In this document: positions 6,169 to 51,173 of the stretch, piece after piece
Layout: each line of letters begins with the position of its first letter
Position numbering within the stretch: position 1 is the first letter of the stretch
NCBI GenBank assembly: GCA_027001995.1
Contig: JALTLO010000017.1
Span: forward strand, 9,905-73,904
DNA: 64,000 nucleotides
Direction: 5' to 3'
From: Planctomycetota bacterium
GTDB lineage: Bacteria > Planctomycetota > GCA-002687715 > DRQF01
The notes under the pieces: generated by a model
Seen by the model: only the letters and a program-made list of their open reading frames with translations
Database searches by the model: none
What the model was told of the DNA's origin: nothing
Translations under genes and position numbers: made by a program

Positions 6169-7014
6169 TTAGGTGATCCAGAAGAAATTAGCGACAATGG
6201 CAGTAATCAGTGCATCTGCGACGATGATAGACAAGAGACACATCACAACAGCAACCATAGTATTGCGCCCAACCCCTTCAGGTCCCCCACGGACAGAAAA
6301 GGCATTGTAACAAGCAACCATGCAAATGGTCGCCCCGAAAACCAACGACTTGATGAGACCGGCCCCCATGTCAATGAGATCAAAAGAATCCCGCGTCGTT
6401 GTGAGATAACTCCAAAATCCGATATCGTACATCGTTGTGCCCGCCACCAGGCCACCCAAGTTGCCAACAAGGTAACTGAACATAGTGAGACAGGGCAGCA
6501 TGATACAAATCGAAATGAAACGTGGCGCCACCAAGTAACCCACAGGGTTAACTCCCATGGTCTCAAGAGCTAGCACTTCTTCATTGATAACCATACTTCC
6601 CAAGCCCGCCGTGAATGCAGCTCCAACTCGGCCGGACAGAACGATGGCCGTCATCAATGGTCCAAGCTCCCGAACAACGGCTATGCAAATCATCGTCGGA
6701 GCTTTGCTCAATGCACCATATTGTTTCAATTGATCAGCCGTATTCAGAATAAGGATGAATCCCACCAAAAATGAAACCAGGCACACGATAAAAAAACTAC
6801 GGACGCCAATCTGCTGCATTAAAGGAAAGACAAGTTGGCGGAACCGAGTTTTTCCAGTGAACGGCCCAAAGAAAGTCCAATAGCAAGTCTGCCAAAACAG
6901 AAGGAACACCCGCGCCAACGCCTCAATGCTCTCTTTGGCACCTGTCACAAGGTCAACAAAGGGCTTCCCCAAAGCTGCAATCGGAGCCATCAAGACATGG
7001 GCGACGCGATTCAT
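6169..7014 (-). CDS. mlaE: MlaE family ABC permease
   Basis: RELGPLMTAIVLSGRVGAAFTAGLGSM, EEVLALETMGVNP and GGPEGVG motifs. Confidence 0.92.
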   Translation of the reverse strand: MNRVAHVLMAPIAALGKPFVDLVTGAKESIEALARVFLLFWQTCYWTFFGPFTGKTRFRQLVFPLMQQIGVRSFFIVCLVSFLVGFILILNTADQLKQYGALSKAPTMICIAVVRELGPLMTAIVLSGRVGAAFTAGLGSMVINEEVLALETMGVNPVGYLVAPRFISICIMLPCLTMFSYLVGNLGGLVAGTTMYDIGFWSYLTTTRDSFDLIDMGAGLIKSLVFGATICMVACYNAFSVRGGPEGVGRNTMVAVVMCLLSIIVADALITAIVANFFWIT

Positions 7015-7020
7015 CCTGGT

Positions 7021-7335
7021 TTAGTCTCCTTCGACAGTAAAGACACTTAAGAGCTTCGACATCTGCAGGACATCGCGAACGCTGTCACTGATGTCAACCA
7101 AAGCATAGGCAACTTTCTTTTTTTGTGTCCATTTCATGCCCTCAATCAACACTGCAATGCCCGAGCTATCAATGTAAGGAACCCCGGTAAGTTGCAGTTT
7201 GAGGTGAGTCGGTTTTTTCTTGATGGTCTTTTTGATCTCGTCCCGAAGTTTCGGCGAGCTCTCCATGTCAACATCACCGGTCACAACCAGGACTACAGTA
7301 TCATCAGTTTCCTGACGTTCGATCGTTAGTTTCAT
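7021..7335 (-). CDS. STAS-domain anti-sigma factor antagonist (RsbV/SpoIIAA or MlaB-like)
   Basis: GDVDMESSPKLR and YIDSSGIAVL with the phosphorylatable Ser; ATGA overlap with the upstream gene. Confidence 0.88.
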   Translation of the reverse strand: MKLTIERQETDDTVVLVVTGDVDMESSPKLRDEIKKTIKKKPTHLKLQLTGVPYIDSSGIAVLIEGMKWTQKKKVAYALVDISDSVRDVLQMSKLLSVFTVEGD

Positions 7336-7760
7336 GATTCTTCTTTTCCGCTCGTGCACTTTGTCATGACCAAGGCCATGCGGCCTTCTCTCACGGTGCA
7401 TGGTTCGAATTCGACCTTGTCCATTACTTCGGCGATAAAATGAGTACCCAAACCACCGGGTTTGATGTCATCTAAATCACGAGGCTTGATCTTCTCGACT
7501 TCCTTGGCTCGGCAATAGTTGTGGACGGTGACAACCGTCTTTTTCTTGCTGTCGAGGATAGAGACCGAAATGGTTCCTTTGGGAAGAAACCAGCTCTGTC
7601 CATGTTTAATAATGTTGGAACACGCTTCATCAATAGCGAGAACCAATTGTCGAACTTCATCTTCTGGGAAGTTCTTTTCGTAGATTGGCTGGATGAATCC
7701 CCGCAGCGATCGCAAGTAGCTGGGATCAGCGGGAACACAGACCGTCATATTATGTGCCAT
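7332..7760 (-). CDS. RsbW/SpoIIAB-like anti-sigma factor (HATPase_c_2 fold)
   Basis: N-box LAIDEACSNIIKHG and G2 PGGLGTHFI; likely start MAHNM at 7760 after a GGAGA RBS. Confidence 0.85.
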   Translation of the reverse strand: MAHNMTVCVPADPSYLRSLRGFIQPIYEKNFPEDEVRQLVLAIDEACSNIIKHGQSWFLPKGTISVSILDSKKKTVVTVHNYCRAKEVEKIKPRDLDDIKPGGLGTHFIAEVMDKVEFEPCTVREGRMALVMTKCTSGKEES

Positions 7761-7906
7761 GGGCACGTCTCTCCTTCGGCTTGCCGATCCCCAGAGTTCC
7801 ATCGGAGGACCAAATAAATCGACGCAAGTACCGTTCTGGCGAAGATTACCGGCAATTCTTGAAATTTGCAATAAGGGTCAGGACACAAATTTTGCTTTCG
7901 AAGAAG

Positions 7907-9145
7907 TTATCTTCGTTTTCCAATAAGACGACTAATCCATATCGTTTCTCTTTGTAAACCCAATTGCCGAAACGCATCCCTGAGCCGTAACAAAAGGGCA
8001 ACGTTTTCTGTCTCGGTAATCCTCAACCTCTCCAACTCTTCCCGGCATTCGGCATAGAGATTCATTTGCCGAAGGAACTCCGCCCGAAGAATGTTCGGAC
8101 TTCGTCCAACCATTGTTTCTAAGGCAAAGAGGCCCTGCTCCACCTTCACACGCTGGGGGCCATCTATGACATTGAAGGAAATTTCCGCCAAGATTTCCTT
8201 ATCCCCTTCAAGCTGGAAAACTTTGACCCAATATTGGCGCCCCGGCTCCAGGGAAAGAACGTCCGCAGGCCAAGACAACTTGCGACCCTTTCCAACCTGC
8301 CGAAAAAGCGCCTTTTGCTTTCCTTTCTCGAAGACGCCTCTCGACACTTTGCGAGTAGGCCGTTCGCTACTCCAACGAATCTGGGGCCGTCGCCCAAAGA
8401 TGGCCCCTCTGGGATGAACGATGTTGATATCGTCCTGCTTCGGTGCCACAGCCGCGACTGTTTTTCTTTCTGGAAGGTGCATGAAGTTGCGCTCATCCCA
8501 AGCCCGTTTTGCCAACTCCTGACTGAAGGGAGTCGCTGGAGAAAGGGAAGACTCCTCGTGAGGGGTCACCACCCAAAATTCACCGTGACGATCCATCACT
8601 TCCAGCCAATCCCCAGCACCGACTTCAATAGCTGTGCCCTGGGTGAGCCAGGTGCCAGGTTCGATGGGCTGGTGGTTCTCTCCCGCAGTTTTCGCCTCGA
8701 GAAAAGGGGCCCCCACACGTGAGACAACCAAACAGTCTCTGAGCGCCAGGCGATCATTGTTGCCAAAATCAAAGTAGGAAGAGACCGAAACAAACAAGAC
8801 CACTGCCGCTGCCATGGTCCCCAAAAGCCAAGGAGACCAACGCCTGGTAATCTTAGCGGACAAAGACAAATGACTCGTCCCTGGGGAAGTCGCTCGTCGC
8901 AACAAGATGGGGACCACACCCGCTTCAAACTCATCATGCAAACGGCTGGAGAGTTGAGCGCAAGCGGGGCAGCTCAGGAGGTGGTTCTCAACGCGGGAGC
9001 ATTCCGTCTTGAACAAGGTCCCCGAGACCAAAGCAGCCAAGTCTTCTATGCAGACATGCCCCATGCCTTCTGGGCGGTCGCCCACCTCTCTGACCAAACT
9101 ATGAATAACCCTCTGACGATCATCGGCTGCCACATGAACCTTCAT
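7907..9145 (-). CDS. zf-HC2 zinc-finger membrane anti-sigma factor with extracytoplasmic domain
   Basis: H...HLLSCPAC ZAS motif, one TM (WLLGTMAAAVVLFVSVS), C-terminal Ig-like and helical region resembling DUF928-type proteins. Confidence 0.7.
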   Translation of the reverse strand: MKVHVAADDRQRVIHSLVREVGDRPEGMGHVCIEDLAALVSGTLFKTECSRVENHLLSCPACAQLSSRLHDEFEAGVVPILLRRATSPGTSHLSLSAKITRRWSPWLLGTMAAAVVLFVSVSSYFDFGNNDRLALRDCLVVSRVGAPFLEAKTAGENHQPIEPGTWLTQGTAIEVGAGDWLEVMDRHGEFWVVTPHEESSLSPATPFSQELAKRAWDERNFMHLPERKTVAAVAPKQDDINIVHPRGAIFGRRPQIRWSSERPTRKVSRGVFEKGKQKALFRQVGKGRKLSWPADVLSLEPGRQYWVKVFQLEGDKEILAEISFNVIDGPQRVKVEQGLFALETMVGRSPNILRAEFLRQMNLYAECREELERLRITETENVALLLRLRDAFRQLGLQRETIWISRLIGKRR

Positions 9146-37716: not shown

Positions 37717-39792
37717 ATGAGTCGCACGCGATCCTATCTCCTGCTTCTGATTCTCATCATATCGACCCCCAGTCTTGCCAACGGCCAAGACAATTTTGAA
37801 CTGGGAAAAATGTGGACCTTCGAGAACGCTCCTCGAGCGTACTTCCTGAAAGAACACGGACTGAACCTGACTGACGAATGGCTCGATTCCGTTCGATTGT
37901 CCTATCTCAAGTTTGGCGGGGGCTGCTCATCTTCCTTCGTTTCTCCCCGCGGCCTCATCATGACCAACCATCATTGCTCTCGAGGTTTCATCGCTACCGC
38001 CTCTCCCGCAGGAAGCGATTGGGTCAAGAACGGCTACATAGCCAAGACCATCAACGATGAAGTTCCCTTGGCGGGTCTCGTCTGTCGGCAACAAGTGGGC
38101 ATGCACGACATCACCCAGATGATGAACAAAGGAATCAAAGCAACAGATGATGACAAGACGGTGGCGGAAAAACGCGACGCCAACAAGAAGGCCATTCTAG
38201 CTGATGCCCAGAAAAAGCACCCGGAGTTAGAGCCAGAGGTGGTCGCCCTCTATCAAGGTGGCATGTATCAACTCTACCTCTATCGCAGCTTCTCTGACAT
38301 CCGATTGGTCGCAGCACCGCATTTGCAAACAGCCCATTTCGGCGGCGACCCAGACAACTTCACTTATCCTCGTTTCGGCATCGACTTCACGTTCGTCCGT
38401 GCTTACGTTGATGGCAAACCCTTTGACAGCAGCGCCCACTATTTCCACTTCAACCCCCAAGGTGCAGTGGAAGGCGAATCCGTCTTCGTTCCTGGAAACC
38501 CTGGTTCCACCAACAGACTGATGACCAAAGCAGAATTGGAATATTGGCGGGACGTTCGTGCCCCCGTAATCCGCGACATCATCCGTATGCGTGGTGCCTA
38601 TTTAGAGGCTCGAATCGCCGAAAACCCAAGCTTAGAACCTTCTCTGCGTCCCCAAGTCTTGAGCAATGACAAAGGCAAAAAGGCCTGGGCAGGCTACCAC
38701 AATGCCCTTCTCTCTGACGACTTCATGGCTTACAAGTCAAAAGCCGAAGAGATGTTCAAGAGCAAAATCCAGAAGGACCCAGCCCTCAAGAAAAAGTATG
38801 GCAAGACATGGGACAGGATCGCTGATATCGCTCGAGGACAGCGAAAAATGTTGGCGCTCAATCGAGCCCACAACACCCTGCGAAATCCCTTATTATCTCG
38901 AGCATTGAATTTGGTCCGCGTCAACGACCCCAGTCTTTCAGCAAAGGAAAAAGGGGCAGCCAGGAAAGCTCTAACCGGAAGGGGCGGCCTGAAAGACATA
39001 GCTCTCGCCAAAGGAGCAGACCTGATTAACCTAGGTTTATGGTTGGATCATGGCCGTACCTGGGCGCCGAAAAATGATGCTTTCATCGCCGCCATCTACC
39101 CAGAATTATCCCCTACAGAGGCCGTTGCCCAGTTGCACGCCAATTCTCCGTGTGCCGCCGGAAATACCGCCAAGGAATTAATGGAAGCTGGAATGGATGT
39201 TCTCAAGGGCAGCAAAGATGCAGCCATCCAAGCAGCTCTCATCCTCCATAAGATGACTCAAGCTGAAAAAGGCAAAATGCAAGAGTTGGGAACAAAGCTC
39301 AAAGTTCAGAAGACCAAAATTGGACAAGCTCTCTTTGCTGTGTACGGCACATCCGTGAGTCCAGATGCCACCGGTACTTTGCGAATCTCTGATGGCAAAG
39401 TAAAAGGTTTCCCAATGAACGGTACCATTGCCCCATGGAGAACAACTTTCTATGGCCTCTACGGAAGAGCCACCGCCTTCGACAATCAATACCCTTTTGA
39501 TCTGCCCCAGGTTTGGTTGGACAAGCGCGACAAGATCGATCTCGCGAAACCAGTGAACTTCGTCGCCACCAACGACATCATCGGTGGCAATTCCGGAAGC
39601 GCTGTTATCAATGCGAAAAGAGAAGTTGTGGGCCTCATTTTCGATGGCAACATCGAAATGTTGGGAAATAACTTTGTTTATCGCAGTGACATCCCCCGGA
39701 GTGTCTCCGTTCATACCGCGGCAATCCTGGAAGCTCTCCAGAGAATCTACAATGCCGATCGGGTTGTTTCTGAGCTTCTTAGCTGGATGTAG
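37717..39792 (+). CDS. S46 family dipeptidyl peptidase (DPP7-type)
   Basis: GKMW, TNHHC (His), GGDPDNF (Asp), GGNSGS (Ser); FDGN indicates a Gly S1 residue as in DPP7. Confidence 0.93.
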   Translation: MSRTRSYLLLLILIISTPSLANGQDNFELGKMWTFENAPRAYFLKEHGLNLTDEWLDSVRLSYLKFGGGCSSSFVSPRGLIMTNHHCSRGFIATASPAGSDWVKNGYIAKTINDEVPLAGLVCRQQVGMHDITQMMNKGIKATDDDKTVAEKRDANKKAILADAQKKHPELEPEVVALYQGGMYQLYLYRSFSDIRLVAAPHLQTAHFGGDPDNFTYPRFGIDFTFVRAYVDGKPFDSSAHYFHFNPQGAVEGESVFVPGNPGSTNRLMTKAELEYWRDVRAPVIRDIIRMRGAYLEARIAENPSLEPSLRPQVLSNDKGKKAWAGYHNALLSDDFMAYKSKAEEMFKSKIQKDPALKKKYGKTWDRIADIARGQRKMLALNRAHNTLRNPLLSRALNLVRVNDPSLSAKEKGAARKALTGRGGLKDIALAKGADLINLGLWLDHGRTWAPKNDAFIAAIYPELSPTEAVAQLHANSPCAAGNTAKELMEAGMDVLKGSKDAAIQAALILHKMTQAEKGKMQELGTKLKVQKTKIGQALFAVYGTSVSPDATGTLRISDGKVKGFPMNGTIAPWRTTFYGLYGRATAFDNQYPFDLPQVWLDKRDKIDLAKPVNFVATNDIIGGNSGSAVINAKREVVGLIFDGNIEMLGNNFVYRSDIPRSVSVHTAAILEALQRIYNADRVVSELLSWM

Positions 39793-39823
39793 TAAGTAGA
39801 GTTCGAGTTTAGAAGGAACAGAG

Positions 39824-41869
39824 ATGAAAACGTCACTCTTGCTTTGGGCATTTGTCTTCAGTGGCTTCCTTTGGAGCCAGTCACCCCAAGATGGGCTCAC
39901 CCCATTCGACGTCGCCACTTTGCGAACGGTCTATCAGGTCATCCCGGCGCCTGATGGCAAGAGCGCCGTTTTCACTCGTTCCGAGCCCAGACTCGCCGGC
40001 GACCCCGCTGGCAGCAATTATGTTCATTTGTTTCAGGTTGGACTCTCCGGCGAATTCCGCCCTGAACTTTTGATCGGCGGCAAAACCCAAGTCCATGGAG
40101 TGAGCTTCTCTCCGGACGGCCAATGGATCACCCATCTTGATCGCCAAAAAAAAGATAAGTACCAGCAGATTTATCGCATCAAGGCCCAAGGAGGAAAAAG
40201 CGAACGGCTGACAAACGCGCCTTTTGGTGTCGCCTCATACAAATGGCGAGAAGATGGCAAAGCCATCGCTTTCACTGCGCGCTTACCCAAACCCCAGCAC
40301 CGCATAGACGCCAGAAAATCCGGATTCAAACCTATCTTTGTTGACGAAGGTTTATCATCGATGGCACTTTTCCTTTGCGACGAGAAAGGTCGCAACGTCA
40401 GAAGACTGACCACGAAGAATAGCGTCGTTGACTTCGTCTGGTCTCGGGACGGCAAGAAGATCGCGTTTTCTGCAGCCCCAACAAGCTCTATCGATGACCG
40501 TTACGTTGGCTGCAAACTCTACCAGCTCGATCTGGCCTCAAGTGCCGTCAAATTAGCAGCTGACAATCCAGGCAAACTCGGCAATTTCGCCATTTCCCCA
40601 GACAACAAGAAATTGTGTTGGATCGGCGCCGTGGACAAGCGAGATCCCCATGCTGGCATGTTGCACATCACCGATCTAAACAACCAGAAAACATCGCTGG
40701 TCACTCAGAAATTCTCCGGCATGGTGCATCAGATCATCTGGCGGGACAATAAGAACCTTGTTGTCGTTGCCAGTTATGGTGCGCGTACTTATGTGGGTGC
40801 ACTCGATCTTTCCAACGGTCAAATCACACCTCTGGGGGGGGGCAAGGGGCTGGCCTTCAAGCACATTGCCCTTGTGCCAGGAGATCCAAACAGCCTAGTG
40901 ACAGCCGCATCCCACGCCCGTTTCCCCGCAGAGGCTCATCGCTTTGTTATTGGGGGCCAACCCGTCCGCTTAAGCTACTCGAATGAGTGGTTGGATGATT
41001 ACGCTTTGGGGAAGCAAGAAACTCTCACCTTTCCGGCACGGGATGGTTTGCCCATCGAAGGGCTCTTGATTTATCCCCTCAACTACGACAAGACCAAACG
41101 CTACCCCCTTGTGGTCGTTGCTCATGGGGGTCCAGAATCTCACTTTTCAGAAGGCTGGAATACCTCTTACTCATCGTGGGGCCAGATGTTGGCGGCACGG
41201 GGTTATTTCGCTTGGCTCCCTAACTACCGTTCCAGTACAGGATATGGCGTGGCCTTTGCTAAGAAAGACCACGGCGACCCCATGGGTGCGGAGTTCAACG
41301 ACCATTTGGATGCAATTCAGTTCTTCGCCAAGAAGGGTCTCATTGACATCAAGCGAGTCGGTATCGGAGGGGGTTCCTATGGCGGCTACACAGCGGCATG
41401 GGCGGCAACAAAGCAGAGCAAACATTTCGCCGCGGCAGTGAGCTTTGTCCCCTTCACCCACATCAGAAGCAAATGGTACACAACGGACATTCCCAAGGAA
41501 TTCTTCCATGTTCACTACGAGGAAAAACACCCCCACGAACAGAAAGCTTTCTTGGATTCCCGAAGTCCCTTGGAATTTGCCGAGTTGTGCACCACACCCC
41601 TTCTGCTCTTGGGTGGCGACAAAGACCCCCGGGTCCATCCTTCCCAACCCTTCATGCTCTACCGAGCAGTAAAAATGGCCACGAAGACACCAACACGGCT
41701 CGTGCAATACGCCAATGAGGGCCACGGAAATCGCATCAACACCAATCGCTACGACTATGCCGTCAGAACCTTGCGTTGGTTTGATCACTATCTGAAGAAA
41801 GGGAACCACCGAACTGATCCCCTCCCTCCTCTCGATGTGGATTACTCGGGCTGGCGGGCTCAGAGGTAG
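39824..41869 (+). CDS. S9 family peptidase (beta-propeller plus alpha/beta hydrolase), exported
   Basis: HGGPE, GGSYGG, DPRV, EGHG catalytic motifs; signal peptide. Confidence 0.93.
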   Translation: MKTSLLLWAFVFSGFLWSQSPQDGLTPFDVATLRTVYQVIPAPDGKSAVFTRSEPRLAGDPAGSNYVHLFQVGLSGEFRPELLIGGKTQVHGVSFSPDGQWITHLDRQKKDKYQQIYRIKAQGGKSERLTNAPFGVASYKWREDGKAIAFTARLPKPQHRIDARKSGFKPIFVDEGLSSMALFLCDEKGRNVRRLTTKNSVVDFVWSRDGKKIAFSAAPTSSIDDRYVGCKLYQLDLASSAVKLAADNPGKLGNFAISPDNKKLCWIGAVDKRDPHAGMLHITDLNNQKTSLVTQKFSGMVHQIIWRDNKNLVVVASYGARTYVGALDLSNGQITPLGGGKGLAFKHIALVPGDPNSLVTAASHARFPAEAHRFVIGGQPVRLSYSNEWLDDYALGKQETLTFPARDGLPIEGLLIYPLNYDKTKRYPLVVVAHGGPESHFSEGWNTSYSSWGQMLAARGYFAWLPNYRSSTGYGVAFAKKDHGDPMGAEFNDHLDAIQFFAKKGLIDIKRVGIGGGSYGGYTAAWAATKQSKHFAAAVSFVPFTHIRSKWYTTDIPKEFFHVHYEEKHPHEQKAFLDSRSPLEFAELCTTPLLLLGGDKDPRVHPSQPFMLYRAVKMATKTPTRLVQYANEGHGNRINTNRYDYAVRTLRWFDHYLKKGNHRTDPLPPLDVDYSGWRAQR

Positions 41870-41903: not shown

Positions 41904-42938
41904 CTACCAACCCATCATCGCAGCCCGAGCTTTTTCTTTGACACGGACACTCACATTCGGGTCATTCGCAAGGTTCTCTAATGCCCGTCTGGAGGCAGGG
42001 GTTTTGACGTGGCCATAGTATTTGACGGCCGCGGCATTGATCCGCGCTCTCTCACTGTCGTTACCATTATCCGCAAATCGTGCAACAGCGGCGTCAATCA
42101 AAGGTTGGGATTCTGGATTCGTAAGAACGAAAAATGATTGGGTCAGTACGTCTGCATGTTTGCTGTTTTCGTCGTTGTAGTAGTCCAAAAGCTGTTGGAC
42201 TCCATTCTTGTTTCCTTGGCGGGCCAGACCAAAAAGCGAATTCACTTTCACTCCTTCATCTTTAGTCTCAGCAACAAGCTTTTCTAAGGCTGCCCCCGCT
42301 TCTTTGTCATCCATGCGCATGAGGACTTGAGATGCCATGGCCTTCATGGTCTCATCCCCATTCTCCAATGCCATCTTCGTCAAAGGATCAATCGACTCCA
42401 CTGAGGCCATTCCCTGGAGCATCAGGACGACGCCAAGCATCTGCTCATCTCCGTCTTCTGATGCCAATAAAGCTAAAACAGCCGCCTGACCTTGAGGCCC
42501 CTCTTGAAGAAGGTCCGCCACGAGTTTCCCGATTTCATTGTTCGAAATCAGTGCACCGATGCCCTTGCCCCGGAGTTTCTTGAACCGATCTTCGATGGCC
42601 GCCATCCTCTCCTTTTTCTTCAGATCTCCCGCATCCACCCTGGCAGTCATTTCAGCATTTTCTCCTTTGACTTTCTTGAGCTCGGCGAGCAAAGCACTAT
42701 TCTCAGTCTTGGCAACACGAGCAGCGGAACGGGATTCTTGCGCATCGCCTTTGAGCGCCGCGATCGTTTTCTTGAGTCGACCAACGATTTCCATATGTTC
42801 CGCTTGGGTCATGCCGACCATTTGCTCCGAGTCCTGGGAGTCAATCCTGTCATCCGTTCCATCGGCGACAAGATTGTGGCCTCCCCAGCCGATGATGGCC
42901 CCGACGACAAGAGTCAAAATTGGTAAGCTGGCTTTCAT
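41904..42938 (-). CDS. Exported or membrane-anchored coiled-coil plus HEAT-repeat protein
   Basis: N-terminal hydrophobic segment, coiled coil, HEAT repeats (VKVNSLFGLARQG). Confidence 0.75.
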   Translation of the reverse strand: MKASLPILTLVVGAIIGWGGHNLVADGTDDRIDSQDSEQMVGMTQAEHMEIVGRLKKTIAALKGDAQESRSAARVAKTENSALLAELKKVKGENAEMTARVDAGDLKKKERMAAIEDRFKKLRGKGIGALISNNEIGKLVADLLQEGPQGQAAVLALLASEDGDEQMLGVVLMLQGMASVESIDPLTKMALENGDETMKAMASQVLMRMDDKEAGAALEKLVAETKDEGVKVNSLFGLARQGNKNGVQQLLDYYNDENSKHADVLTQSFFVLTNPESQPLIDAAVARFADNGNDSERARINAAAVKYYGHVKTPASRRALENLANDPNVSVRVKEKARAAMMGW

Positions 42939-43070
42939 GATATGGTTCTCCTCTTATGATGGATCGGCACTTGATTCGTTTTGCCAACTTCTTTGCTCTG
43001 CCATTGTCATTCCGGTGACAGAAGTCTGATATTTCTTGTACGAAGGCCGAATCTAAGATAATTACACCCA

Positions 43071-43649
43071 ATGACCACCGAGAAAAGTTTCAAGACGAGC
43101 TACACTCAGGCCCGAGAAGGCAATCAAGAGGCCCAATCCATCCTCTTAAATGGTGTGCGGGATCGCTTAATTCGATACATTGAAAAAAGAATGGGACTGG
43201 AAGCTCGGCGCAAAACAGAAGCGGAGGATGTGGCTCAATCTGCACTCTTAGACCTATTGGAGCGATTGGAACGATTCCCGAAGGACTTAAGTGAAACTGA
43301 ATTCTTGGCCTATGCTTTGCAACTGGGACGTTGGCGTCTAGCAAATCTTTTTCGCCGTCAGAGAAACGATGTCGGGGCATCTCAAATTCCGAGTCCGCCA
43401 GCAGCCCCTCATCCCAGCACTGGCATCGTGACCCGGGACGATGATCGCATCTGGACCCACAAACTCATTGCCGACCTAGATACGCTCTACTCATCGGTGT
43501 TAAACTGCTACCATATCCGCCTCATGACAGTTGCCGCAACCGCCAACCATCTTAATATCTCGGAAGCCGCTGTTAAACAACGTCTTTCTCGGGGACGTAA
43601 GTTACTCCAAGATAAGATGTCCAAAGAATGGAATCGTCGAGATAGATGA
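43071..43649 (+). CDS. ECF sigma factor
   Basis: AREGNQEA, EAEDVAQS, region 4 ISEAAVKQRLSRGRKLL; ATGA-coupled to the kinase. Confidence 0.9.
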   Translation: MTTEKSFKTSYTQAREGNQEAQSILLNGVRDRLIRYIEKRMGLEARRKTEAEDVAQSALLDLLERLERFPKDLSETEFLAYALQLGRWRLANLFRRQRNDVGASQIPSPPAAPHPSTGIVTRDDDRIWTHKLIADLDTLYSSVLNCYHIRLMTVAATANHLNISEAAVKQRLSRGRKLLQDKMSKEWNRRDR

Positions 43650-45748
43650 CTGAAAAACATGATCAAATCAAAGAGCAGTTCCAACGACTATTCTTGGCGG
43701 AATTGGAAGCGGGAACTCAAAGGGAATTAGAAGACTATCAGCGGCTTTTCGACGGTCACCATGATTTGATCGAGGAACTCTATCTGCGCATGAATCTGGA
43801 TGCTTCCGACCCCTCTACAGGGGAAAGCTGCAACATCCCAGGTATGATTTTTAGGATCGCAGAAACAGGAGACACAGTTGGGCGCTATCTCTTGGGGCCT
43901 GAAATTGGCAGAGGGGGCCAAGCTGTTGTTTTTTCAGCTAAAGATCAGAAGCTCGATCGTACTGTGGCTATCAAGATACTGACACGAGTCGACTTGGGCA
44001 GTGAGTCCACCCTTCGTCGCTTTCAACGAGAGGCTGAATTGTGTTCCAAGCTCAATCACCCGAGTATCTGCACTGTCTTTGAATCCGACATTCATGACGG
44101 CATGCCCTACATCGCCATGGAACTGATTGAAGGCACCTCAATCGCCAACCAAATCGAAACCCAGCGCACCAGAGGAGCTACAGAGTCATTCGAAAATTCG
44201 GAAGAAGAGAATGAGTCTCCGAACGAAGAGATCTTTTTTCCATCAATTATAGCGGATGAAAGTCCACGTGAGCTCGCCGCCACAACTGCGGGCAAAATCG
44301 TCAACACAGTCCTGCCAAACAAAGAGGCGCTTCGTTCGATTCTTAGAACATTCGAAAGAACAGCCTTGGCACTCCACGAAGCCCATACCGCTGGCATTAT
44401 TCACCGAGACATCAAACCAGGAAACGTCATGGTGCGAAAAAATGGAGAACCTGTCATTCTTGATTTTGGATTGGCCCACGACGAACAGTCCGAACGCATG
44501 GATCTCACCCAGACTGGCGACTTCTTCGGAACGCCGGCTTACATGTCGCCGGAACAATTATCCGCCCATCGAATTCGCCTTGATCACCGTACGGACATTT
44601 TCTCCTTGGCTGTCAGCCTCTATGAAGCGATTACATTGCAACGACCCTTCGCTGCACCTACAAGAGAAGAGATCTATCAGGCCATCCTGACGAAGGAGCC
44701 CGAGGACCTACGAAAACTCAACAAAGACGCCCCCAAAGACATCGCAACTGTTGTTTCCAAGGCAATGGAGAAAGATAGGGATCGACGCTACGCCACATCC
44801 TTAGAATTTGCTGAGGACATCTCCCGGGTACTCAAGATGCACCCCATTCACGCCCGTCCTGCCAGTGTTGCAGTCAAGTTGACCAGATGGACCCAAAGAA
44901 ACCGCACTCTGGCCATCTTTGCCTTCGCCCTCCCCGTCGTCGGACTCCTCAGCGTCCTCGCTACAGATGAAGTGCAACGAAGAACAGAGCAAACACGATC
45001 CGCCGCCGAATTCCAGCAACGATGGCGGGACTTCCAATCATCCTTTGATCGTTTTGTTGAGATTCAAGACAACTCCGCCCTAGGGCTTATTCTTCAGGAT
45101 CGTTCCCTCAGTCAAATAACCAAAGAAATCGATTTTTTCGGAGCAGTGGCCAAGAGTTGGATTCGCCAGAAATTGGAAGACGAGAATGATGGCGTCCGTT
45201 TAGCAGCCATCCGCATTCTGATGCAAGTGGGAGACGAGGCATCTGCACAATCTCTTACCGATCACTGCCTCAACGATTCGAGTAAGCTCATTAGAATCTG
45301 GTGTTCCCAAGCACTTTTCCGAATCCCTGACGACAATGTGGTACCTTTCTTGCGGCAAGTCCTTGAAGAGACAGAAGACGGTGCCTGTCGTGTAAACGCC
45401 CTTTTCGGACTAGCGGCATTTCGGACTGCCGACGCCGCTGAATTGGCTCTATTATTCTTCCGAAATAAGGAAAATCCAGAAGCATTGCGCTACGTTATGG
45501 CTCAAAATGTCCTCTTAGTAGGAATGCCGGCCATGAGAACCATGGCAGAAGAATTTGAATCCACCCTACGGACAAATGATCTTCAAGGCTGGGGGACCAT
45601 CTTGGAATACTACAAACATCAATCCAAAGACATAGCCTTGCCAAAGTTGGAGAACATCGCAGGCAAGGAGACACTTCTCAAAGACATTCAGCTTCAAGCC
45701 CAAAAAATGTTGGATGAGACCAAAAAGACCAATGTGGACGAGAATTGA
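43646..45748 (+). CDS. Membrane Hanks-type Ser/Thr kinase with C-terminal HEAT domain
   Basis: GRGGQAVV, VAIK, HRDIKPGN, DFG, GTPAYMSPEQ; TM TLAIFAFALPVVGLLSVLA; HEAT repeats after the TM. Confidence 0.93.
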   Translation: MTEKHDQIKEQFQRLFLAELEAGTQRELEDYQRLFDGHHDLIEELYLRMNLDASDPSTGESCNIPGMIFRIAETGDTVGRYLLGPEIGRGGQAVVFSAKDQKLDRTVAIKILTRVDLGSESTLRRFQREAELCSKLNHPSICTVFESDIHDGMPYIAMELIEGTSIANQIETQRTRGATESFENSEEENESPNEEIFFPSIIADESPRELAATTAGKIVNTVLPNKEALRSILRTFERTALALHEAHTAGIIHRDIKPGNVMVRKNGEPVILDFGLAHDEQSERMDLTQTGDFFGTPAYMSPEQLSAHRIRLDHRTDIFSLAVSLYEAITLQRPFAAPTREEIYQAILTKEPEDLRKLNKDAPKDIATVVSKAMEKDRDRRYATSLEFAEDISRVLKMHPIHARPASVAVKLTRWTQRNRTLAIFAFALPVVGLLSVLATDEVQRRTEQTRSAAEFQQRWRDFQSSFDRFVEIQDNSALGLILQDRSLSQITKEIDFFGAVAKSWIRQKLEDENDGVRLAAIRILMQVGDEASAQSLTDHCLNDSSKLIRIWCSQALFRIPDDNVVPFLRQVLEETEDGACRVNALFGLAAFRTADAAELALLFFRNKENPEALRYVMAQNVLLVGMPAMRTMAEEFESTLRTNDLQGWGTILEYYKHQSKDIALPKLENIAGKETLLKDIQLQAQKMLDETKKTNVDEN

Positions 45749-47039: not shown

Positions 47040-49175
47040 ATGCAAATCAGGCTCCGCGAGGCAGTTAGGCTTACACTCCTATTCTGCGCATTCCAAGTTG
47101 CGCTTCAGGCTCAACGCCCAGAAATTCTCTATCTACGTTTCAGTGAAACAAGCGGGTCGGTCACAGCAGACCGTGCTTTCCCTGGCCTTCCTGGCGTTTC
47201 GCCAACCATCCAGAATGGTGCTGCCTTCAACACGAACACAAATAGCACTGGTGGCGTTGTTTTGGGGCCAGCGTGTCTTAAGACAGCAAATACCACGGCG
47301 GATCCCTGCGTCATTAACACTGCCTTCTCCGTCACCGGTGATTGGACGATCGAGTTTTGGATCATTGACACAGAATCGTCTCCTAGCACGACGCGCTACG
47401 TCTTTGGCGACCCAACAATTTCGAACTTCAGGTGCTACCGCGATCCCTCTGGCCCCAACTCCACTCTCACATTGGAGGGAGCTGGCATAAAGAAAGTCGC
47501 AATTACCACAGCGGTTCAGTTTGCAACTTGGAAGCACGTAGCGTTGGTTCACGACTCCCGGGCCTTGACGATCACGCCTTATGTAGATGGAATCGTACGT
47601 CCACCCGTCACGCAGCCTGCCCCTATCGACTTGGTAGGAAGCGGCACGACTGGTCTGATCATCGGCGGTTTCGGTCCTGGCAATGCTACTTGGCGTGGGC
47701 GCATTGACGAATTCCGCGTTTGGGACCGAACTCTTTCAAGCTTAGAAATTGGAGCGCAAGCTCTGGGTCATCTCAATCTCGTAACGGACGACATCGCCTG
47801 TTCCTCGATCACAAGCCCAGTCACCCGCCCGACTAATTGCAAGACACTTTCGGCGTCTGAAACAATCAGCATCGCAATCTCCAACACGGGCACAAATCCC
47901 ATTGCCGCTGGAACCGTTATTCCCGTGGAAGTCCGGGTCAACACTGTCTTGGTGCTGTCTGACATGATCACCACGACGCAAATTCTCAACACGGGCGACT
48001 CCGAAGTGCTGAGCATTCCCACGCCAGTGGATCTCTCTATGACCCCCGCCTTGACCATGACGGTCACAACGATGTTCCCTGGAGATGTCGTCAACCTCAA
48101 TAACACCGCAACCCGAGTTCTGGTGACTAATGAGGTACCTATCGCAGCGTTTCCTTATGTGGAAGATTTCTCTGGGATCGCTTCAAATCAAAGTATTCTA
48201 CCACCGGCAGGCTGGGTCCAAGATCCAGATGACTCTTCTGGTCCCGATTCCGAATGGATTTTCACCAATCAAGCCACACCCACTGTGGGAACTGGCCCCA
48301 TGGCAGACTTTTCAACGGGTCTCACCGGAGGCACAGGCTATTACGCTTATGTGGAAGATGCTGGCAATCACAGTGCCGTCAACTTAGTTACAAGATGTTT
48401 TGACTTCACCAATACATCCAATCCCAGTCTCAAATTCTGGCTCTATAGTGCAAATGCGAACGGCACCGGAGGAGCCAACGAGAACTTCCTTTCAGTGGAT
48501 GTTATCACCTCACCAGGTGGTGCCATTACTTTGGATGTATTGCCACAAACCGGGCATGTCGGCTCCTTGTGGCAACCCTATGTTGTCAACTTAGGGGCCT
48601 TCAATGGTTCCTTGTGCCGTCTCGTATTCCGAGGCCGGAGCGACGGTGGAGGTGACACACATGACCTTGCCATCGACGACATTACCATCTTCGATTTCGT
48701 ACCAGGTATTGGCCAAGCTCCTCAGCCAGGAGTTGCCGTTATGGACATCAATAACGCCATAAGCCCAGGTTTGGCCGCTGTCTCTTCTGGTGACAAGGGC
48801 CCTTACACCAGCAATGTGGATGTCGGTGATTTGTTGACGTTTGATTTTTCAGGCGAACCAAATCAAACAATCATCCTTCTCTTGGGCACCAAGAACCCCA
48901 ATGCCGCGATCTTCCCTGTTGTTGGTAGCATTGACATTGGTGGCCCCATTGATCCCATGAGTATGCTTCCTACGGGAGTCGTCATCTTCGCAGATGGCTC
49001 GGTTCCTTCGGGCTTCAATCCGTTCTTCAATACTACATCTGCAGGAACCGCCAACGTGTTCTTCACTATGCCCCCTGTGCCACCTGGAATTTTGACGACA
49101 TTCCAAGCAGCACTTTTGAACTCAACTCCTTCGGGAGTCGGCATGACGAACGCGATTGAAGTGACTGTCAACTAA
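47040..49175 (+). CDS. Secreted LamG-like + CARDB/Ig-like + MAM-like protein with conserved C-terminal domain
   Basis: Signal peptide; LamG motifs WTIEFW, WKHVALV, GRIDEFRVWDR; Ig-like SNTGT...NNT; MAM-like TPTVGTGP...DLAIDDI. Confidence 0.8.
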   Translation: MQIRLREAVRLTLLFCAFQVALQAQRPEILYLRFSETSGSVTADRAFPGLPGVSPTIQNGAAFNTNTNSTGGVVLGPACLKTANTTADPCVINTAFSVTGDWTIEFWIIDTESSPSTTRYVFGDPTISNFRCYRDPSGPNSTLTLEGAGIKKVAITTAVQFATWKHVALVHDSRALTITPYVDGIVRPPVTQPAPIDLVGSGTTGLIIGGFGPGNATWRGRIDEFRVWDRTLSSLEIGAQALGHLNLVTDDIACSSITSPVTRPTNCKTLSASETISIAISNTGTNPIAAGTVIPVEVRVNTVLVLSDMITTTQILNTGDSEVLSIPTPVDLSMTPALTMTVTTMFPGDVVNLNNTATRVLVTNEVPIAAFPYVEDFSGIASNQSILPPAGWVQDPDDSSGPDSEWIFTNQATPTVGTGPMADFSTGLTGGTGYYAYVEDAGNHSAVNLVTRCFDFTNTSNPSLKFWLYSANANGTGGANENFLSVDVITSPGGAITLDVLPQTGHVGSLWQPYVVNLGAFNGSLCRLVFRGRSDGGGDTHDLAIDDITIFDFVPGIGQAPQPGVAVMDINNAISPGLAAVSSGDKGPYTSNVDVGDLLTFDFSGEPNQTIILLLGTKNPNAAIFPVVGSIDIGGPIDPMSMLPTGVVIFADGSVPSGFNPFFNTTSAGTANVFFTMPPVPPGILTTFQAALLNSTPSGVGMTNAIEVTVN

Positions 49176-49220
49176 GGATTCGTCACAAGAAACCTTGTTG
49201 ACCACAAAGGAGAAAACAAA

Positions 49221-51173
49221 ATGAAATTTAACCAGTCCTTTTTGAGCCTTTTGCTACTCGTTGCATTCATCGCTGTGAGTACAACCCAAGCCGAGGCCCA
49301 ATCCCCATTGACCACAACCTTTGCCGACAATAACGGTTCCACAGGTAACATGTTCGATGTCAAATCGCTCACCGGTGTGATTATCAATGACTTCGACATC
49401 AACACGGCTGTCACCACAGGTGACTTCGAAGTTTGGGCCCTCATCACACCCAATGTTTCCTATGTGAACAACCGCATGAGCAACGCCAACTGGACCCTTC
49501 TTGGGACAGCAACTGGTGTTGTAGGTGCAGGCGCTGGCAACCCAACACCTTTGGGGCTCAACCTGAACTTCCCTATTTTCCCTGGGGACACCCAAGCATT
49601 CTATATAACCGGCATCAACGGTGCTAGTGTCAGATACACCACCGGCACCGGTGCCCCTGGCACTCTCTATGCATCCAATACAGACCTGGAATACTATCAG
49701 GGTTACGGCGGAGGTTATTTCAATCTGACGTTTAATCCCCGCATCTGGAATGGCAACATTCATTACACCAACCAAATGCTCTTCTCCGATGACTTGGCGA
49801 CAACGAAGATCCTTTCGCCTGTGAATGACCCTCTTAGTTGCGCCGCGGGATCGTCGACAGAAGTGGTCTCATTTGAGTTTCGTAATTTCGGCACAGTGAC
49901 TGTTCCTTCAGGCACCGTGATCACCGTGTCCTTCACTGTCGATGGCGGCCCTCCCACCTTCGAGTTTTTCCCTTTAGCTGCCCCCCTTGCATTAGGGGAT
50001 ACAGCCTCATATACATTCACGGCCACCGCCGACCTCTCAACAATCGGCGCCCATACAGTGACCTGTACGGCCAGTGGTTTGATTGACTTCGACACTTCGA
50101 ACGACAGTTTGACCGAAACCATCTACAGTGGTGGTGAAACCCGCATTGTCCTTTTTCCCTATACTGAAGACTTCACGGTCACAGGAGTCAACGGTTCAAC
50201 CGTAGCTCCCGCGGGTTATGTCCAAGAGACAACCGAGGCTAGCGGATTTAACTCGGACTGGTTATTTAGAAACGACGCGACCCCTACATTCAACACAGGT
50301 CCCTCCGCGGACAACACCACAGGGGTCGCCGGTTCTGGTGGCTACGCCTACGTCGATGATGACAGCAATCATGCGGCCATCAATCTTCGATCTCCGTGTT
50401 TCGATCTACTGGGAGCCTTCAACCCAAGTTTGCGATTCTTCATTTATTCCAACAGTGCCACCGGCCCGACACAGCAAAATTTGTTCTCGATTGATGTCAT
50501 TAGCCAACCCAGTGGCCTCATCACGACAGATGTTTTTGGTCCTCAGGGCCACATTGGCCCGAACTGGACCTTCCAAGCTTTGAGCCTCAACGCCTTCGCA
50601 GGGCAAACGATCCAGTTGGTGTTGAGAGGGGAAACGACCAATAGCGGAAGTAACAACCATGACATCGCCATCGATGATCTTTCTGTGCTTGAGGTCCTAT
50701 CAACCCCCGGGCAAGCTCCCCAACCCGGTTTAGCCGTCTTGGATATCAACGACCCAAGGAATATCAATACAGACCCTCTGACCTTTGGTTTTGGTGGTCC
50801 CTACTTCACCAACGTCACAGAAGGCGACATCTTGCAATTCAAGATGGAAGGTGAAGCACTTCAGCCAATCATCCTGTTCTCAGGGCCCCTCAATCCCAAT
50901 GTTGCCTCCTTCCCTAATGTGGGCAGTATTGACATGGGTGGTCCCATTGACCCCGTGAGCGGCTTGCCAACTGCCTTGACTGTCCTAGCGGATGGCACAG
51001 TAATAGGAGGTCTCAACTCCTTCTTTATTACGGCAGCAGACGGAATTGCCAACATTGGTTTCAGTGTTCCTAATTTGCCAATCGGGGTTCTCGGATCATT
51101 CCAATGTGCCTTCTTCACGACTGGAGGAGCTGGGGTTGCCCTCTCCAACGCCGTGCAAGTAACGGTTATGTAG
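49221..51173 (+). CDS. Secreted CARDB/Ig-like + MAM-like protein, paralog of the upstream gene
   Basis: Signal peptide ending AEA; GNMFDV N-terminal domain; TPTFNTGP...DIAIDDL; same C-terminal domain. Confidence 0.8.
   Translation: MKFNQSFLSLLLLVAFIAVSTTQAEAQSPLTTTFADNNGSTGNMFDVKSLTGVIINDFDINTAVTTGDFEVWALITPNVSYVNNRMSNANWTLLGTATGVVGAGAGNPTPLGLNLNFPIFPGDTQAFYITGINGASVRYTTGTGAPGTLYASNTDLEYYQGYGGGYFNLTFNPRIWNGNIHYTNQMLFSDDLATTKILSPVNDPLSCAAGSSTEVVSFEFRNFGTVTVPSGTVITVSFTVDGGPPTFEFFPLAAPLALGDTASYTFTATADLSTIGAHTVTCTASGLIDFDTSNDSLTETIYSGGETRIVLFPYTEDFTVTGVNGSTVAPAGYVQETTEASGFNSDWLFRNDATPTFNTGPSADNTTGVAGSGGYAYVDDDSNHAAINLRSPCFDLLGAFNPSLRFFIYSNSATGPTQQNLFSIDVISQPSGLITTDVFGPQGHIGPNWTFQALSLNAFAGQTIQLVLRGETTNSGSNNHDIAIDDLSVLEVLSTPGQAPQPGLAVLDINDPRNINTDPLTFGFGGPYFTNVTEGDILQFKMEGEALQPIILFSGPLNPNVASFPNVGSIDMGGPIDPVSGLPTALTVLADGTVIGGLNSFFITAADGIANIGFSVPNLPIGVLGSFQCAFFTTGGAGVALSNAVQVTVM

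Follow-up and report, generated by a model that had tools for sequence, protein, structure and literature searches.

The locus lies in a 64,000-nucleotide stretch of planctomycete DNA, called the window. It comprises gene H on the reverse strand and, read away from it on the forward strand, the genes of a sigma factor and of a kinase (K). Its features, in window coordinates, are the following.

41904..42938, minus strand: H, 344 aa, exported or membrane-anchored, with a hydrophobic N-terminus, a coiled coil and a HEAT solenoid; putative target of the sigma factor
41907..42620, minus strand: H residues 107-344, all-helical solenoid of ~235 aa common to H and K (alphaRep/HEAT_PBS-like; alignment)
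42594..42806, minus strand: H residues ~45-115, probable coiled-coil stalk (weak Pfam coiled-coil matches under the cut-off)
42882..42938, minus strand: H residues 1-19, signal peptide or signal anchor (MK and a hydrophobic stretch; hydropathy and homologous N-termini)
42948..42955, minus strand: Shine-Dalgarno-like AAGAGGAG ahead of the H start codon (sequence)
42994..42996, minus strand: GCA, putative -10 core of an ECF-type promoter reading towards H, invariant in 7/7 sigma-linked loci
43015..43019, minus strand: putative -35 element GTCAC, 18 nt before GCA, invariant in the same 7/7 loci
43071..43649, plus strand: ECF sigma factor, 192 aa, with the acidic region-2.2 motif EAED (Pfam and TIGR02937)
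43646..45748, plus strand: K, one-TM Hanks kinase, 700 aa, catalytic motifs intact (ORF and Pfam)
43646..43870, plus strand: K residues 1-75, conserved segment N-terminal of the kinase domain; candidate sigma-docking part
43871..44845, plus strand: K catalytic domain (GRGGQAV, VAIK, HRDIKPGN, DFG...TQT...GTPAYMSPE)
44906..44962, plus strand: K transmembrane helix, residues 421-439 (hydropathy)
45044..45715, plus strand: K ectodomain, residues 467-690, paralog of the H solenoid (alignments, profiles)

The sigma factor is an ECF protein (group 4 sigma70) of about 190 residues that carries regions 2 and 4 only. Its Sigma70_r2 match is above the Pfam cut-off, the r4 matches are just below, and TIGR02937 scores 59 bits for a cut-off of 42.9. 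It exceeds no subfamily cut-off, the nearest proxy for the kinase-associated ECF groups, TIGR02984, reaching 35.8 vs 183.75 bits. Its stop codon overlaps the kinase start (ATGA). The kinase gene is found at position +1 of the sigma gene in 7/7 loci (in those checked, the two genes overlap or lie no more than about 10 nt apart), and this membrane Ser/Thr kinase adjoining the sigma factor, with no separate anti-sigma, is the arrangement of kinase-associated ECFs. The motifs VAxK, HRD, DFG and the TQT loop are present in all seven kinase sequences and the Gly-loop pattern in five of them. Residues 1-75 of K, conserved in 8/8 aligned orthologs, match no Pfam family; an assignment as anti-sigma domain was rejected, hhalign detecting no similarity to anti-sigma N-termini.

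In the EAED motif of the sigma factor E50 and D53 are invariant in 6/6 sequences, and the preceding Thr is found in only three of the six. Because the acidic motif is retained, the protein is not of the EcfP/ECF43 type that needs phosphate at region 2.2; the invariant S104 and T121 are candidate phosphorylation sites. The ECF43 systems EcfP/PknT of Vibrio parahaemolyticus and EcfK/PknS of Xanthomonas citri resemble the locus in that the kinase next to the sigma factor has one TM and, in the periplasm, a helical-repeat domain, which in PknS is of TPR type (PMC8999054, PMC13147305). They differ by the absence of the DAED motif, phosphate being needed there (PMC8999054), and no free paralog of the ectodomain appears in their descriptions in the relevant sections of these sources (PMC8999054, PMC13147305). 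The planctomycete kinase-associated groups ECF59, ECF61, ECF62 and ECF217 (Casas-Pastor et al. 2021, PMC7826278) share with the locus an ECF sigma factor, a membrane Hanks kinase at +1, the absence of a separate anti-sigma and the occurrence in Planctomycetota. Their group descriptions in that source feature kinases with TPR, WD40, zinc-finger or multi-TM regions and mention neither a HEAT ectodomain nor homology between ectodomain and neighbour; they mostly report no conserved promoter, with TC in the -35 element of ECF59, whereas GTCAC-N18-GCA is found at the window locus.

Hydropathy alone predicts one TM in K and one hydrophobic N-terminus in H; the latter may be a signal peptide or an anchor. 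H matches HEAT_2 of Pfam at residues 155-231 (E 4.7e-10). Its solenoid is modelled by AlphaFold2 with a pLDDT of 92 and has alphaRep proteins as best Foldseek matches (TM 0.55-0.60). The fold is common to alphaRep/HEAT_PBS solenoids, but the H domain is a fixed-length, non-repetitive family of ~235 aa with its own caps. No named Pfam family covers this solenoid, NCBIfam has none for H, and an ESM Atlas search returned unnamed HEAT clusters only.

The preliminary description of the locus had aligned the kinase ectodomain with H by eye. All ten peptide blocks quoted there occur in both proteins without change of order, spanning K residues 467-672 and H residues 116-324. The two sequences give 45.8 bits in BLASTP (24% identity over 148 aa, E 1e-9), and 45/233 aligned positions are identical in a global alignment with few gaps. 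Their Smith-Waterman score is 128, compared with 33.7+-4.9 (maximum 53) for 500 shuffles, and they are reciprocal best hits among the 21,405 stop-to-stop ORFs of the genome. Generic HEAT similarity is ruled out by profiles built without kinases from 61, 49, 12 and 20 rows: these score the K ectodomain at 125, 112, 114 and 97 bits over nearly their whole length, whereas no other ORF of the genome exceeds 37, 34, 26 and 32 bits. Homology between the sensor and the product of a neighbouring gene, as expected of a design in which the sensor is a paralog of the target, is found at the locus. The ectodomain had also been called a copy of its neighbour. Homology stands, but K proves to be an ancient, fast-evolving paralog: in a matrix of five kinase ectodomains against 14 family members, the window K reaches 128 against its own H but more against members from other genomes, namely 208 for an anti-sigma form and 189 for a stand-alone H. 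A recent locus-specific copy or gene conversion is rejected by this matrix and by the AU test (p=1.7e-5).

The divergent layout, H on one side and sigma factor and kinase on the other, recurs in all seven genomes that carry this sigma factor, within a family set of nine genomes, all from uncultured planctomycetes. The solenoid is visible in the kinase of six of the seven; reading is limited by a contig end in G001, by frameshifted pieces in G004 and in G008 by a contig that ends 56 aa past the TM. Every readable ortholog retains the full-length ectodomain and its invariant residues. H also occurs with unrelated neighbours in genomes where sigma factor and kinase are absent from its side (G003, G007, G013, G017, G022 and others), which indicates an independent function for H; the analysis found no ligand and no conserved partner gene of H. 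Beside more distant sigma homologs, 0/7 testable kinases match a neighbour, and among the 34 kinase C-termini of the genome just two, that of K and that of a marginal kinase, find their best match in a neighbour other than a kinase. The design is therefore not general for this sigma type. A survey of sigma-kinase pairs in the genome, incomplete because the sigma profile drifted, caught four; the other three lack the H promoter motif, and the two with a testable ectodomain show no convincing neighbour match (Smith-Waterman 41 and 47). Wider searches for solenoid-kinase fusions yielded two proteins plus one, a word-based search being insensitive here, and collection scans gave one metagenome locus and eight genome loci, the latter on contigs already in the set. 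Note that an apparent second case in the same genome, a kinase on C5 with a 39% match to an ORF on C81, was rejected: rather than being a divergent partner, this ORF more probably continues a paralogous kinase that a contig end interrupts (C145).

A domain homologous to H is also found at the tip of zf-HC2/FecR-type proteins of ~500 aa, which are probable ECF anti-sigmas. In 6/7 such loci with DNA an ECF sigma gene lies directly ahead, the seventh being cut by a contig end. Pfam FecR is above its cut-off in 2/13 library proteins and in L113, and zf-HC2 in L033; the rest are assigned by alignment. The predicted model of the FecR part is of low confidence, while the segment equivalent to the H stalk is modelled in one such protein as a single 78-residue helix. 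All 13 anti-sigma-type proteins among the 150 best library hits contain an internal Met with K/R within six residues and a hydrophobic stretch. The products predicted from it have 312-347 aa, close to the 344 aa of H. A Shine-Dalgarno-like site is present at the internal start in 4/7 loci with DNA; the segment is absent in two of the seven, and one has the segment but no start was found. A search for such a start beyond this domain returned the query alone. As far as sequence tells, these relatives would make a free-plus-tethered pair out of a single gene in which a second start is hidden.

The kinase ectodomains group in a single clade (SH-aLRT 83 and 92, in quick trees computed, like all trees here, without bootstrap), and the branching order within it mirrors the one seen for the H genes. 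One tree left out 12/67 rows (long, partial or near-duplicate), and the AU-tested tree has 33 rows. As to the donor of the domain, the ectodomains nest among family H genes in two trees and fall outside them in the third, and grouping of K with the anti-sigma forms is tolerated (p-AU 0.47 and 0.26). Between the same genome pairs, identity is 43 vs 68%, 28 vs 40% and 21 vs 31% for ectodomain and H, respectively; judging from these sequence comparisons, the ectodomain is the faster evolving. It is not nearer to its own H than to other family members and, given this and the faster drift, its specificity may have moved away from that of H. Long kinase branches and low identity would suit a capture of the domain from a nearby gene long ago, with the kinase now sensing something that H does not bind and H simply an output of the sigma factor; accessory domains of planctomycete kinases are often shuffled, as described in PMC11032199. 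We consider such a purely historical relation unlikely, since the domain is kept in full with its invariant residues in the readable kinases. Moreover, it has been paired with ECF transducers many times, the anti-sigma label requiring 11 changes on the tree, and the forms so derived keep a predicted internal product of H size.

Upstream of H, GTCAC-N18-GCA is found in 7/7 sigma-linked loci and in 0/6 sigma-less H genes. It is the only gapped 5+3 pattern common to the six discovery loci, and the held-out locus of G008 carries it also. It occurs on the H strand only, 38-58 nt ahead of the ATG, with exactly 18 nt between its halves in 7/7 loci although the spacers otherwise align poorly; 0/300 simulated sets contained such a motif. 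The tie of the motif to the sigma factor is one of co-occurrence among seven loci that are kin. The earlier proposal that H is a target of the sigma factor thus gains indirect backing from this motif, seen only before sigma-linked H genes, and H may be regarded as a probable target. The bipartite form is typical of ECF promoters. It could instead be argued that H is not a target, the motif belonging to another regulator and the head-to-head layout reflecting shared control only; the eight bases are few and frequent, with 114 matches in the genome. The exact spacing, the orientation to H, the bipartite form and the absence from all six sigma-less H genes make this highly improbable. A regulon search with the eight-base motif placed 14 of the 114 matches outside long ORFs, with no coherent set, and a scan for sigma-70 promoters and terminators gave no excess over shuffles.

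Specific homology and the three-gene layout, together with the indirect case for H as target, support part of the self-referential circuit proposed in the preliminary description, in which the kinase would sense the same ligand as H or oligomerise with it. We favour, with a probability of roughly one half, a small feedback circuit in which the binding domain of the output protein has been co-opted as sensor. H would be the working protein, exported or membrane-anchored, whose solenoid most likely binds an envelope protein or peptide, the client. A copy of the solenoid would have become the ectodomain of an ECF-linked kinase once, early in the family, and would since have drifted faster than H. 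Client in excess over H would bind the ectodomain and activate the kinase, which would turn on the translationally coupled sigma factor, either phosphorylating it away from the acidic motif or releasing it from the N-terminal segment of K. Active sigma factor would transcribe H from GTCAC-N18-GCA, and additional H would titrate the client and turn the signal down. Homology, layout, motif, tree and the conserved internal Met are results of computation; the client, the direction of control and the sigma activation step are inferred, as is the actual use of the promoter and of the internal start. In relatives the equivalent free-plus-tethered pair would operate with an anti-sigma in place of the kinase, both forms coming from a single gene through an internal start. 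The alphaRep-like fold identified by Foldseek is a known protein-binding scaffold, which counts for client-binding feedback.

Alternatively, H might bind the kinase ectodomain directly through an inherited self-association surface and hold the kinase off (or on), the signal arising when H is lost, cleaved or occupied. Both forms, free and tethered, are encoded together for each of two unrelated transducers, the H stalk is of a kind typical of oligomers, and in Brassica the receptor kinase SRK is linked to SLG, a free ectodomain (PMC4031107). Such a co-receptor or decoy is somewhat doubtful: binding partners might track each other, but K is not specially close to its own H, and H persists in several genomes with no transducer. 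The solenoid is also ~100 residues from the anchor of H and ~25 from the TM of K, which is awkward if H stays anchored. A predicted complex between the solenoid of H and the ectodomain of K, run without controls, gave a score of 0.01 and a mark of 0.32 and is evidence neither way.

The favoured feedback circuit has parallels in known systems. In BlaR1/BlaZ the sensor domain derives from a beta-lactamase-like fold and its gene is divergent from the enzyme gene under its control; there, the transducer is a protease acting with a repressor, and sensor and target belong to different beta-lactamase classes. In Clostridium thermocellum the GH10 module of RsgI6 shares 57% identity with Xyn10D, which is among the targets of the cognate sigma factor, sigmaI6, and both bind the same substrate class (PMC4711584), so that a sensor ectodomain is a paralog of a regulon product. 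This tested precedent counts for the feedback model. RsgI6 is an anti-sigma with a carbohydrate enzyme fold, whereas the window has a kinase with a protein-binding solenoid; the part of that source dealing with RsgI6 neither shows the target as a divergent neighbour nor notes an internal start (PMC4711584). Brassica SRK/SLG also includes a Ser/Thr receptor kinase whose ectodomain closely resembles a free protein of the same locus, but is eukaryotic, of unrelated fold and devoid of a sigma factor, and serves as analogy only (PMC4031107). The architecture had been presented as undescribed. Its principle is preceded by RsgI6/Xyn10D and SRK/SLG; for this family, the literature searched yielded no description of the H/sigma/kinase design, and some earlier papers and supplements may bear on its novelty.

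Planctomycetes have many ECF-kinase pairs; here the input and output ends can be named from sequence, namely a candidate promoter (GTCAC-N18-GCA), a candidate target (H) and a sensor domain whose specificity may be read from H. With both ends nameable, the switching of DAED-intact kinase-linked ECFs becomes open to direct test on no more than three genes and their 132-bp spacer. The free-plus-tethered pair under kinase or anti-sigma points to a reusable feedback-sensor design. More tentatively, it may reflect a general two-isoform receptor in which a protein-binding domain occurs both on its own and attached to an ECF transducer, the response being set by the ratio of the two forms. Two genes would provide it with the kinase and one gene with the FecR-type anti-sigma, where the FecR domain would hide a ribosome-binding site, a start codon and a signal sequence reusing a FecR strand. 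If true, prokaryotes would have here an equivalent of the soluble or truncated isoforms of receptors; a dual-use coding element of this type, a FecR domain with hidden start and signal, was not found in the literature searched. Given the conserved internal start, such anti-sigma genes may well have a second, exported product that annotation overlooks.

The exported or membrane-anchored HEAT-solenoid protein H is encoded head to head with an ECF sigma factor, whose gene is followed by that of the Hanks kinase K. The three ORFs were placed at the same coordinates as in the preliminary description:

41904-42938, minus strand: ORF of H
43071-43649, plus strand: ORF of the ECF sigma factor
43646-45748, plus strand: ORF of the kinase K

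The sigma and kinase ORFs overlap at ATGA. The kinase has a single hydrophobic helix (residues 421-439) and the amino terminus of H is hydrophobic. The colinear match of the kinase sensor to H claimed in the preliminary description is borne out: the kinase carboxyl-terminal part aligns with H across ~230 residues (BLASTP 45.8 bits, E 1e-9; global alignment 45/233 identities), the Smith-Waterman score is 128 versus 33.7 ± 4.9 for shuffles (n = 500), and K and H are reciprocally each other's top match among 21,405 ORFs compared. The suggested check against generic HEAT proteins gave 97-125 bits for the ectodomain in kinase-free profiles versus 26-37 bits for the next-best ORF, so that the two belong to a specific family and the match is not a generic HEAT_2 likeness. 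AlphaFold2 confidently predicts an all-helical solenoid (pLDDT 92) whose closest solved structures are alphaRep binders. The K-H homology and its conservation are real.

The close relatives of the source genome are Planctomycetota MAGs. The sigma ortholog is present in seven of nine family genomes (source genome counted) and the proposed survey of related genomes found H head to head with sigma, and the kinase next after sigma, in all seven. The kinase carries a visible solenoid in 6/7: it is whole in the source genome (G000), G002, G005 and G006, interrupted by the contig end in G001, and on the last of three frameshifted kinase pieces in G004; in G008, the seventh, the contig stops too early to show the ectodomain. 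H stands alone in the sigma-less family genomes G003 and G007 and in three further genomes of the same order (G013, G017, G022). At a threshold of 1e-15 the domain profile matches 43 of 401 phylum-sampled genomes, weaker matches being generic HEAT proteins. Among ten loci of more distant sigma homologs (two without kinase, one cut off), the kinase matched a neighbour in none of the seven testable. Within the source genome a non-kinase neighbour is the best match for 2/34 kinase carboxyl termini, those of K and of one marginal kinase. The layout is family-specific.

GTCAC-N18-GCA is the sole 5+3 gapped pattern common to the six first-examined spacers, on the H strand 38-58 nt upstream of the H start. 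No such pattern was common to the sigma strand of these spacers, nor to all spacers in any of 300 simulated sets. Its elements in the window are:

43019-43015, H strand: GTCAC, putative promoter element (shared pattern)
42996-42994, H strand: GCA, putative promoter element (shared pattern)

The later-found locus of G008 also has the pattern, which is upstream of 0/6 sigma-less H genes. The loci bearing it are kin, and it occurs 114 times in the source genome. It is the best evidence, albeit indirect, that H is probably a target of sigma; expression of H independently of sigma appears very improbable. An A-rich tract resembling an UP element lies ~10-15 nt upstream of GTCAC on the H strand (window 43026-43036) and at the equivalent place in most loci. 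Another match in the source genome (C61:1125, minus strand) precedes by 114 nt the gene of an apparently exported protein, which diverges from the gene of a further membrane kinase (C61:2084-4936, plus strand); the contig has no listed ECF sigma. In G006 a second ECF sigma-kinase pair (L030:4382-5982, minus strand) is directly downstream of H on the same strand, which raises the possibility of a cascade driven from the H promoter in that genome.

The sigma factor retains the acidic residues of region 2.2, whereas EcfP lacks them, which explains the inactivity of the latter according to PMC8999054. S104 and T121 are invariant in sigma, the kinase motifs are intact and the 75-residue kinase amino terminus is conserved. 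Sigma might be phosphorylated outside the acidic motif, S104 and T121 being candidates, or alternatively be held by the kinase amino terminus. Since H also occurs by itself, next to varied genes, it would act as the effector, the ectodomain being a binding module that the kinase has borrowed. Free client, a presumed envelope protein or peptide bound by H, would activate the kinase through the ectodomain, activated sigma would drive H production and H would remove the client, a reading with a probability of roughly one half. Direct binding between H and the kinase is a rather doubtful alternative, and mere historical capture of the ectodomain an unlikely one.

The kinase ectodomains form a single clade (support 83 in a 67-row tree, 92 in a 55-row tree) whose branching mirrors that of the H genes, consistent with a single ancient origin and vertical descent thereafter. 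A clade uniting K and H of the window was rejected (p-AU 1.7e-5). The ectodomain evolves faster than either H or the catalytic domain. Two trees place the kinase ectodomains, and so their candidate donor, within the family H clade and a third places them outside it; a presumed FecR-type anti-sigma factor carrying the same solenoid is another candidate donor, which was not rejected.

This third form was surveyed among the 150 best matches from 1.84 billion representatives. Proteins matched by the profile in a single near-full-length stretch form three length groups, ~275-400 aa (chiefly stand-alone, with a few fragments), 421-559 aa and ~700 aa (kinase). The 421-559 aa class combines an amino-terminal part, either helical or of zf-HC2 type, with a TM, a FecR-like part and the solenoid; an ECF sigma is encoded immediately upstream in 6/7 loci with DNA. 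All 13 library proteins of this class (P0015, P0023, P0042, P0050, P0062, P0065, P0067, P0070, P0093, P0095, P0099, P0100, P0118; two identical or nearly so to loci L028 and L031) have an invariant internal Met, one of only three invariant columns in the region apart from the first Met; K/R and a hydrophobic stretch come after it. The predicted product from this Met is H-sized (312-347 aa). AAGGAGG lies 7 nt upstream of the internal ATG in L028, and L031, L114 and L115 have weaker Shine-Dalgarno-like sites. The segment is absent in L033 and L112, and present in L113, where the start was not found. Two instances are:

L028:4563-4580: in-frame Shine-Dalgarno, ATG and signal-like stretch inside the FecR domain
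L031 protein 6627-8198, minus strand, residue 191: in-frame Shine-Dalgarno, ATG and signal-like stretch inside the FecR domain

With the solenoid on both kinase and anti-sigma, accompanied by an H gene or a putative internal start, two unrelated ECF transducers would each have a route to the free form. The putative hidden second start would be the most surprising part of the design. The only FecR anti-sigma of the source genome (C78:24282-26063, minus strand), behind sigma C78:26069-26560, ends in a distant full-length solenoid match (29.7 bits, profile 7-230 of 234); it has no internal-start segment, and a HEAT protein is encoded nearby (C78:20784-22529). The stand-alone H gene of G017 closes an apparent operon that also encodes a small membrane protein and a flotillin (Band_7 + Flot; L029:6697-9974, minus strand), and L031 has a Band_7 gene ~4 kb from the anti-sigma form. 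These neighbours, not conserved elsewhere, are a possible hint of envelope stress.

BlaR1 is one of the known systems set beside the K/H pair. SRK/SLG offers a plant analogy (PMC4031107). Kinase-linked ECFs are already known in planctomycetes, and paralogy of ectodomain and neighbour is not among the features given in the available text (PMC7826278). Searches of the accessible literature found nothing relevant on the K/H architecture, as the preliminary description had supposed, nor on internal starts in FecR anti-sigmas. The principle of a sensor paralogous to a regulon product is established for RsgI6/Xyn10D (PMC4711584); the locus is a new variant of this known design.

Note that exported S46 and S9 peptidase genes (window 37717-41869, plus strand) converge on H; both are at the equivalent place in G002, and an S9-like gene in G005. 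A tandem pair of secreted MAM-domain proteins with similar carboxyl-terminal ends, one with Laminin_G_3, is encoded at 47040-51173 (plus strand), and a homolog of the first is at the equivalent place in G002. The source genome also has three tandem paralogous membrane kinases (C182:25881-34324, minus strand) whose ~500-aa ectodomains are mutually ~30% identical.
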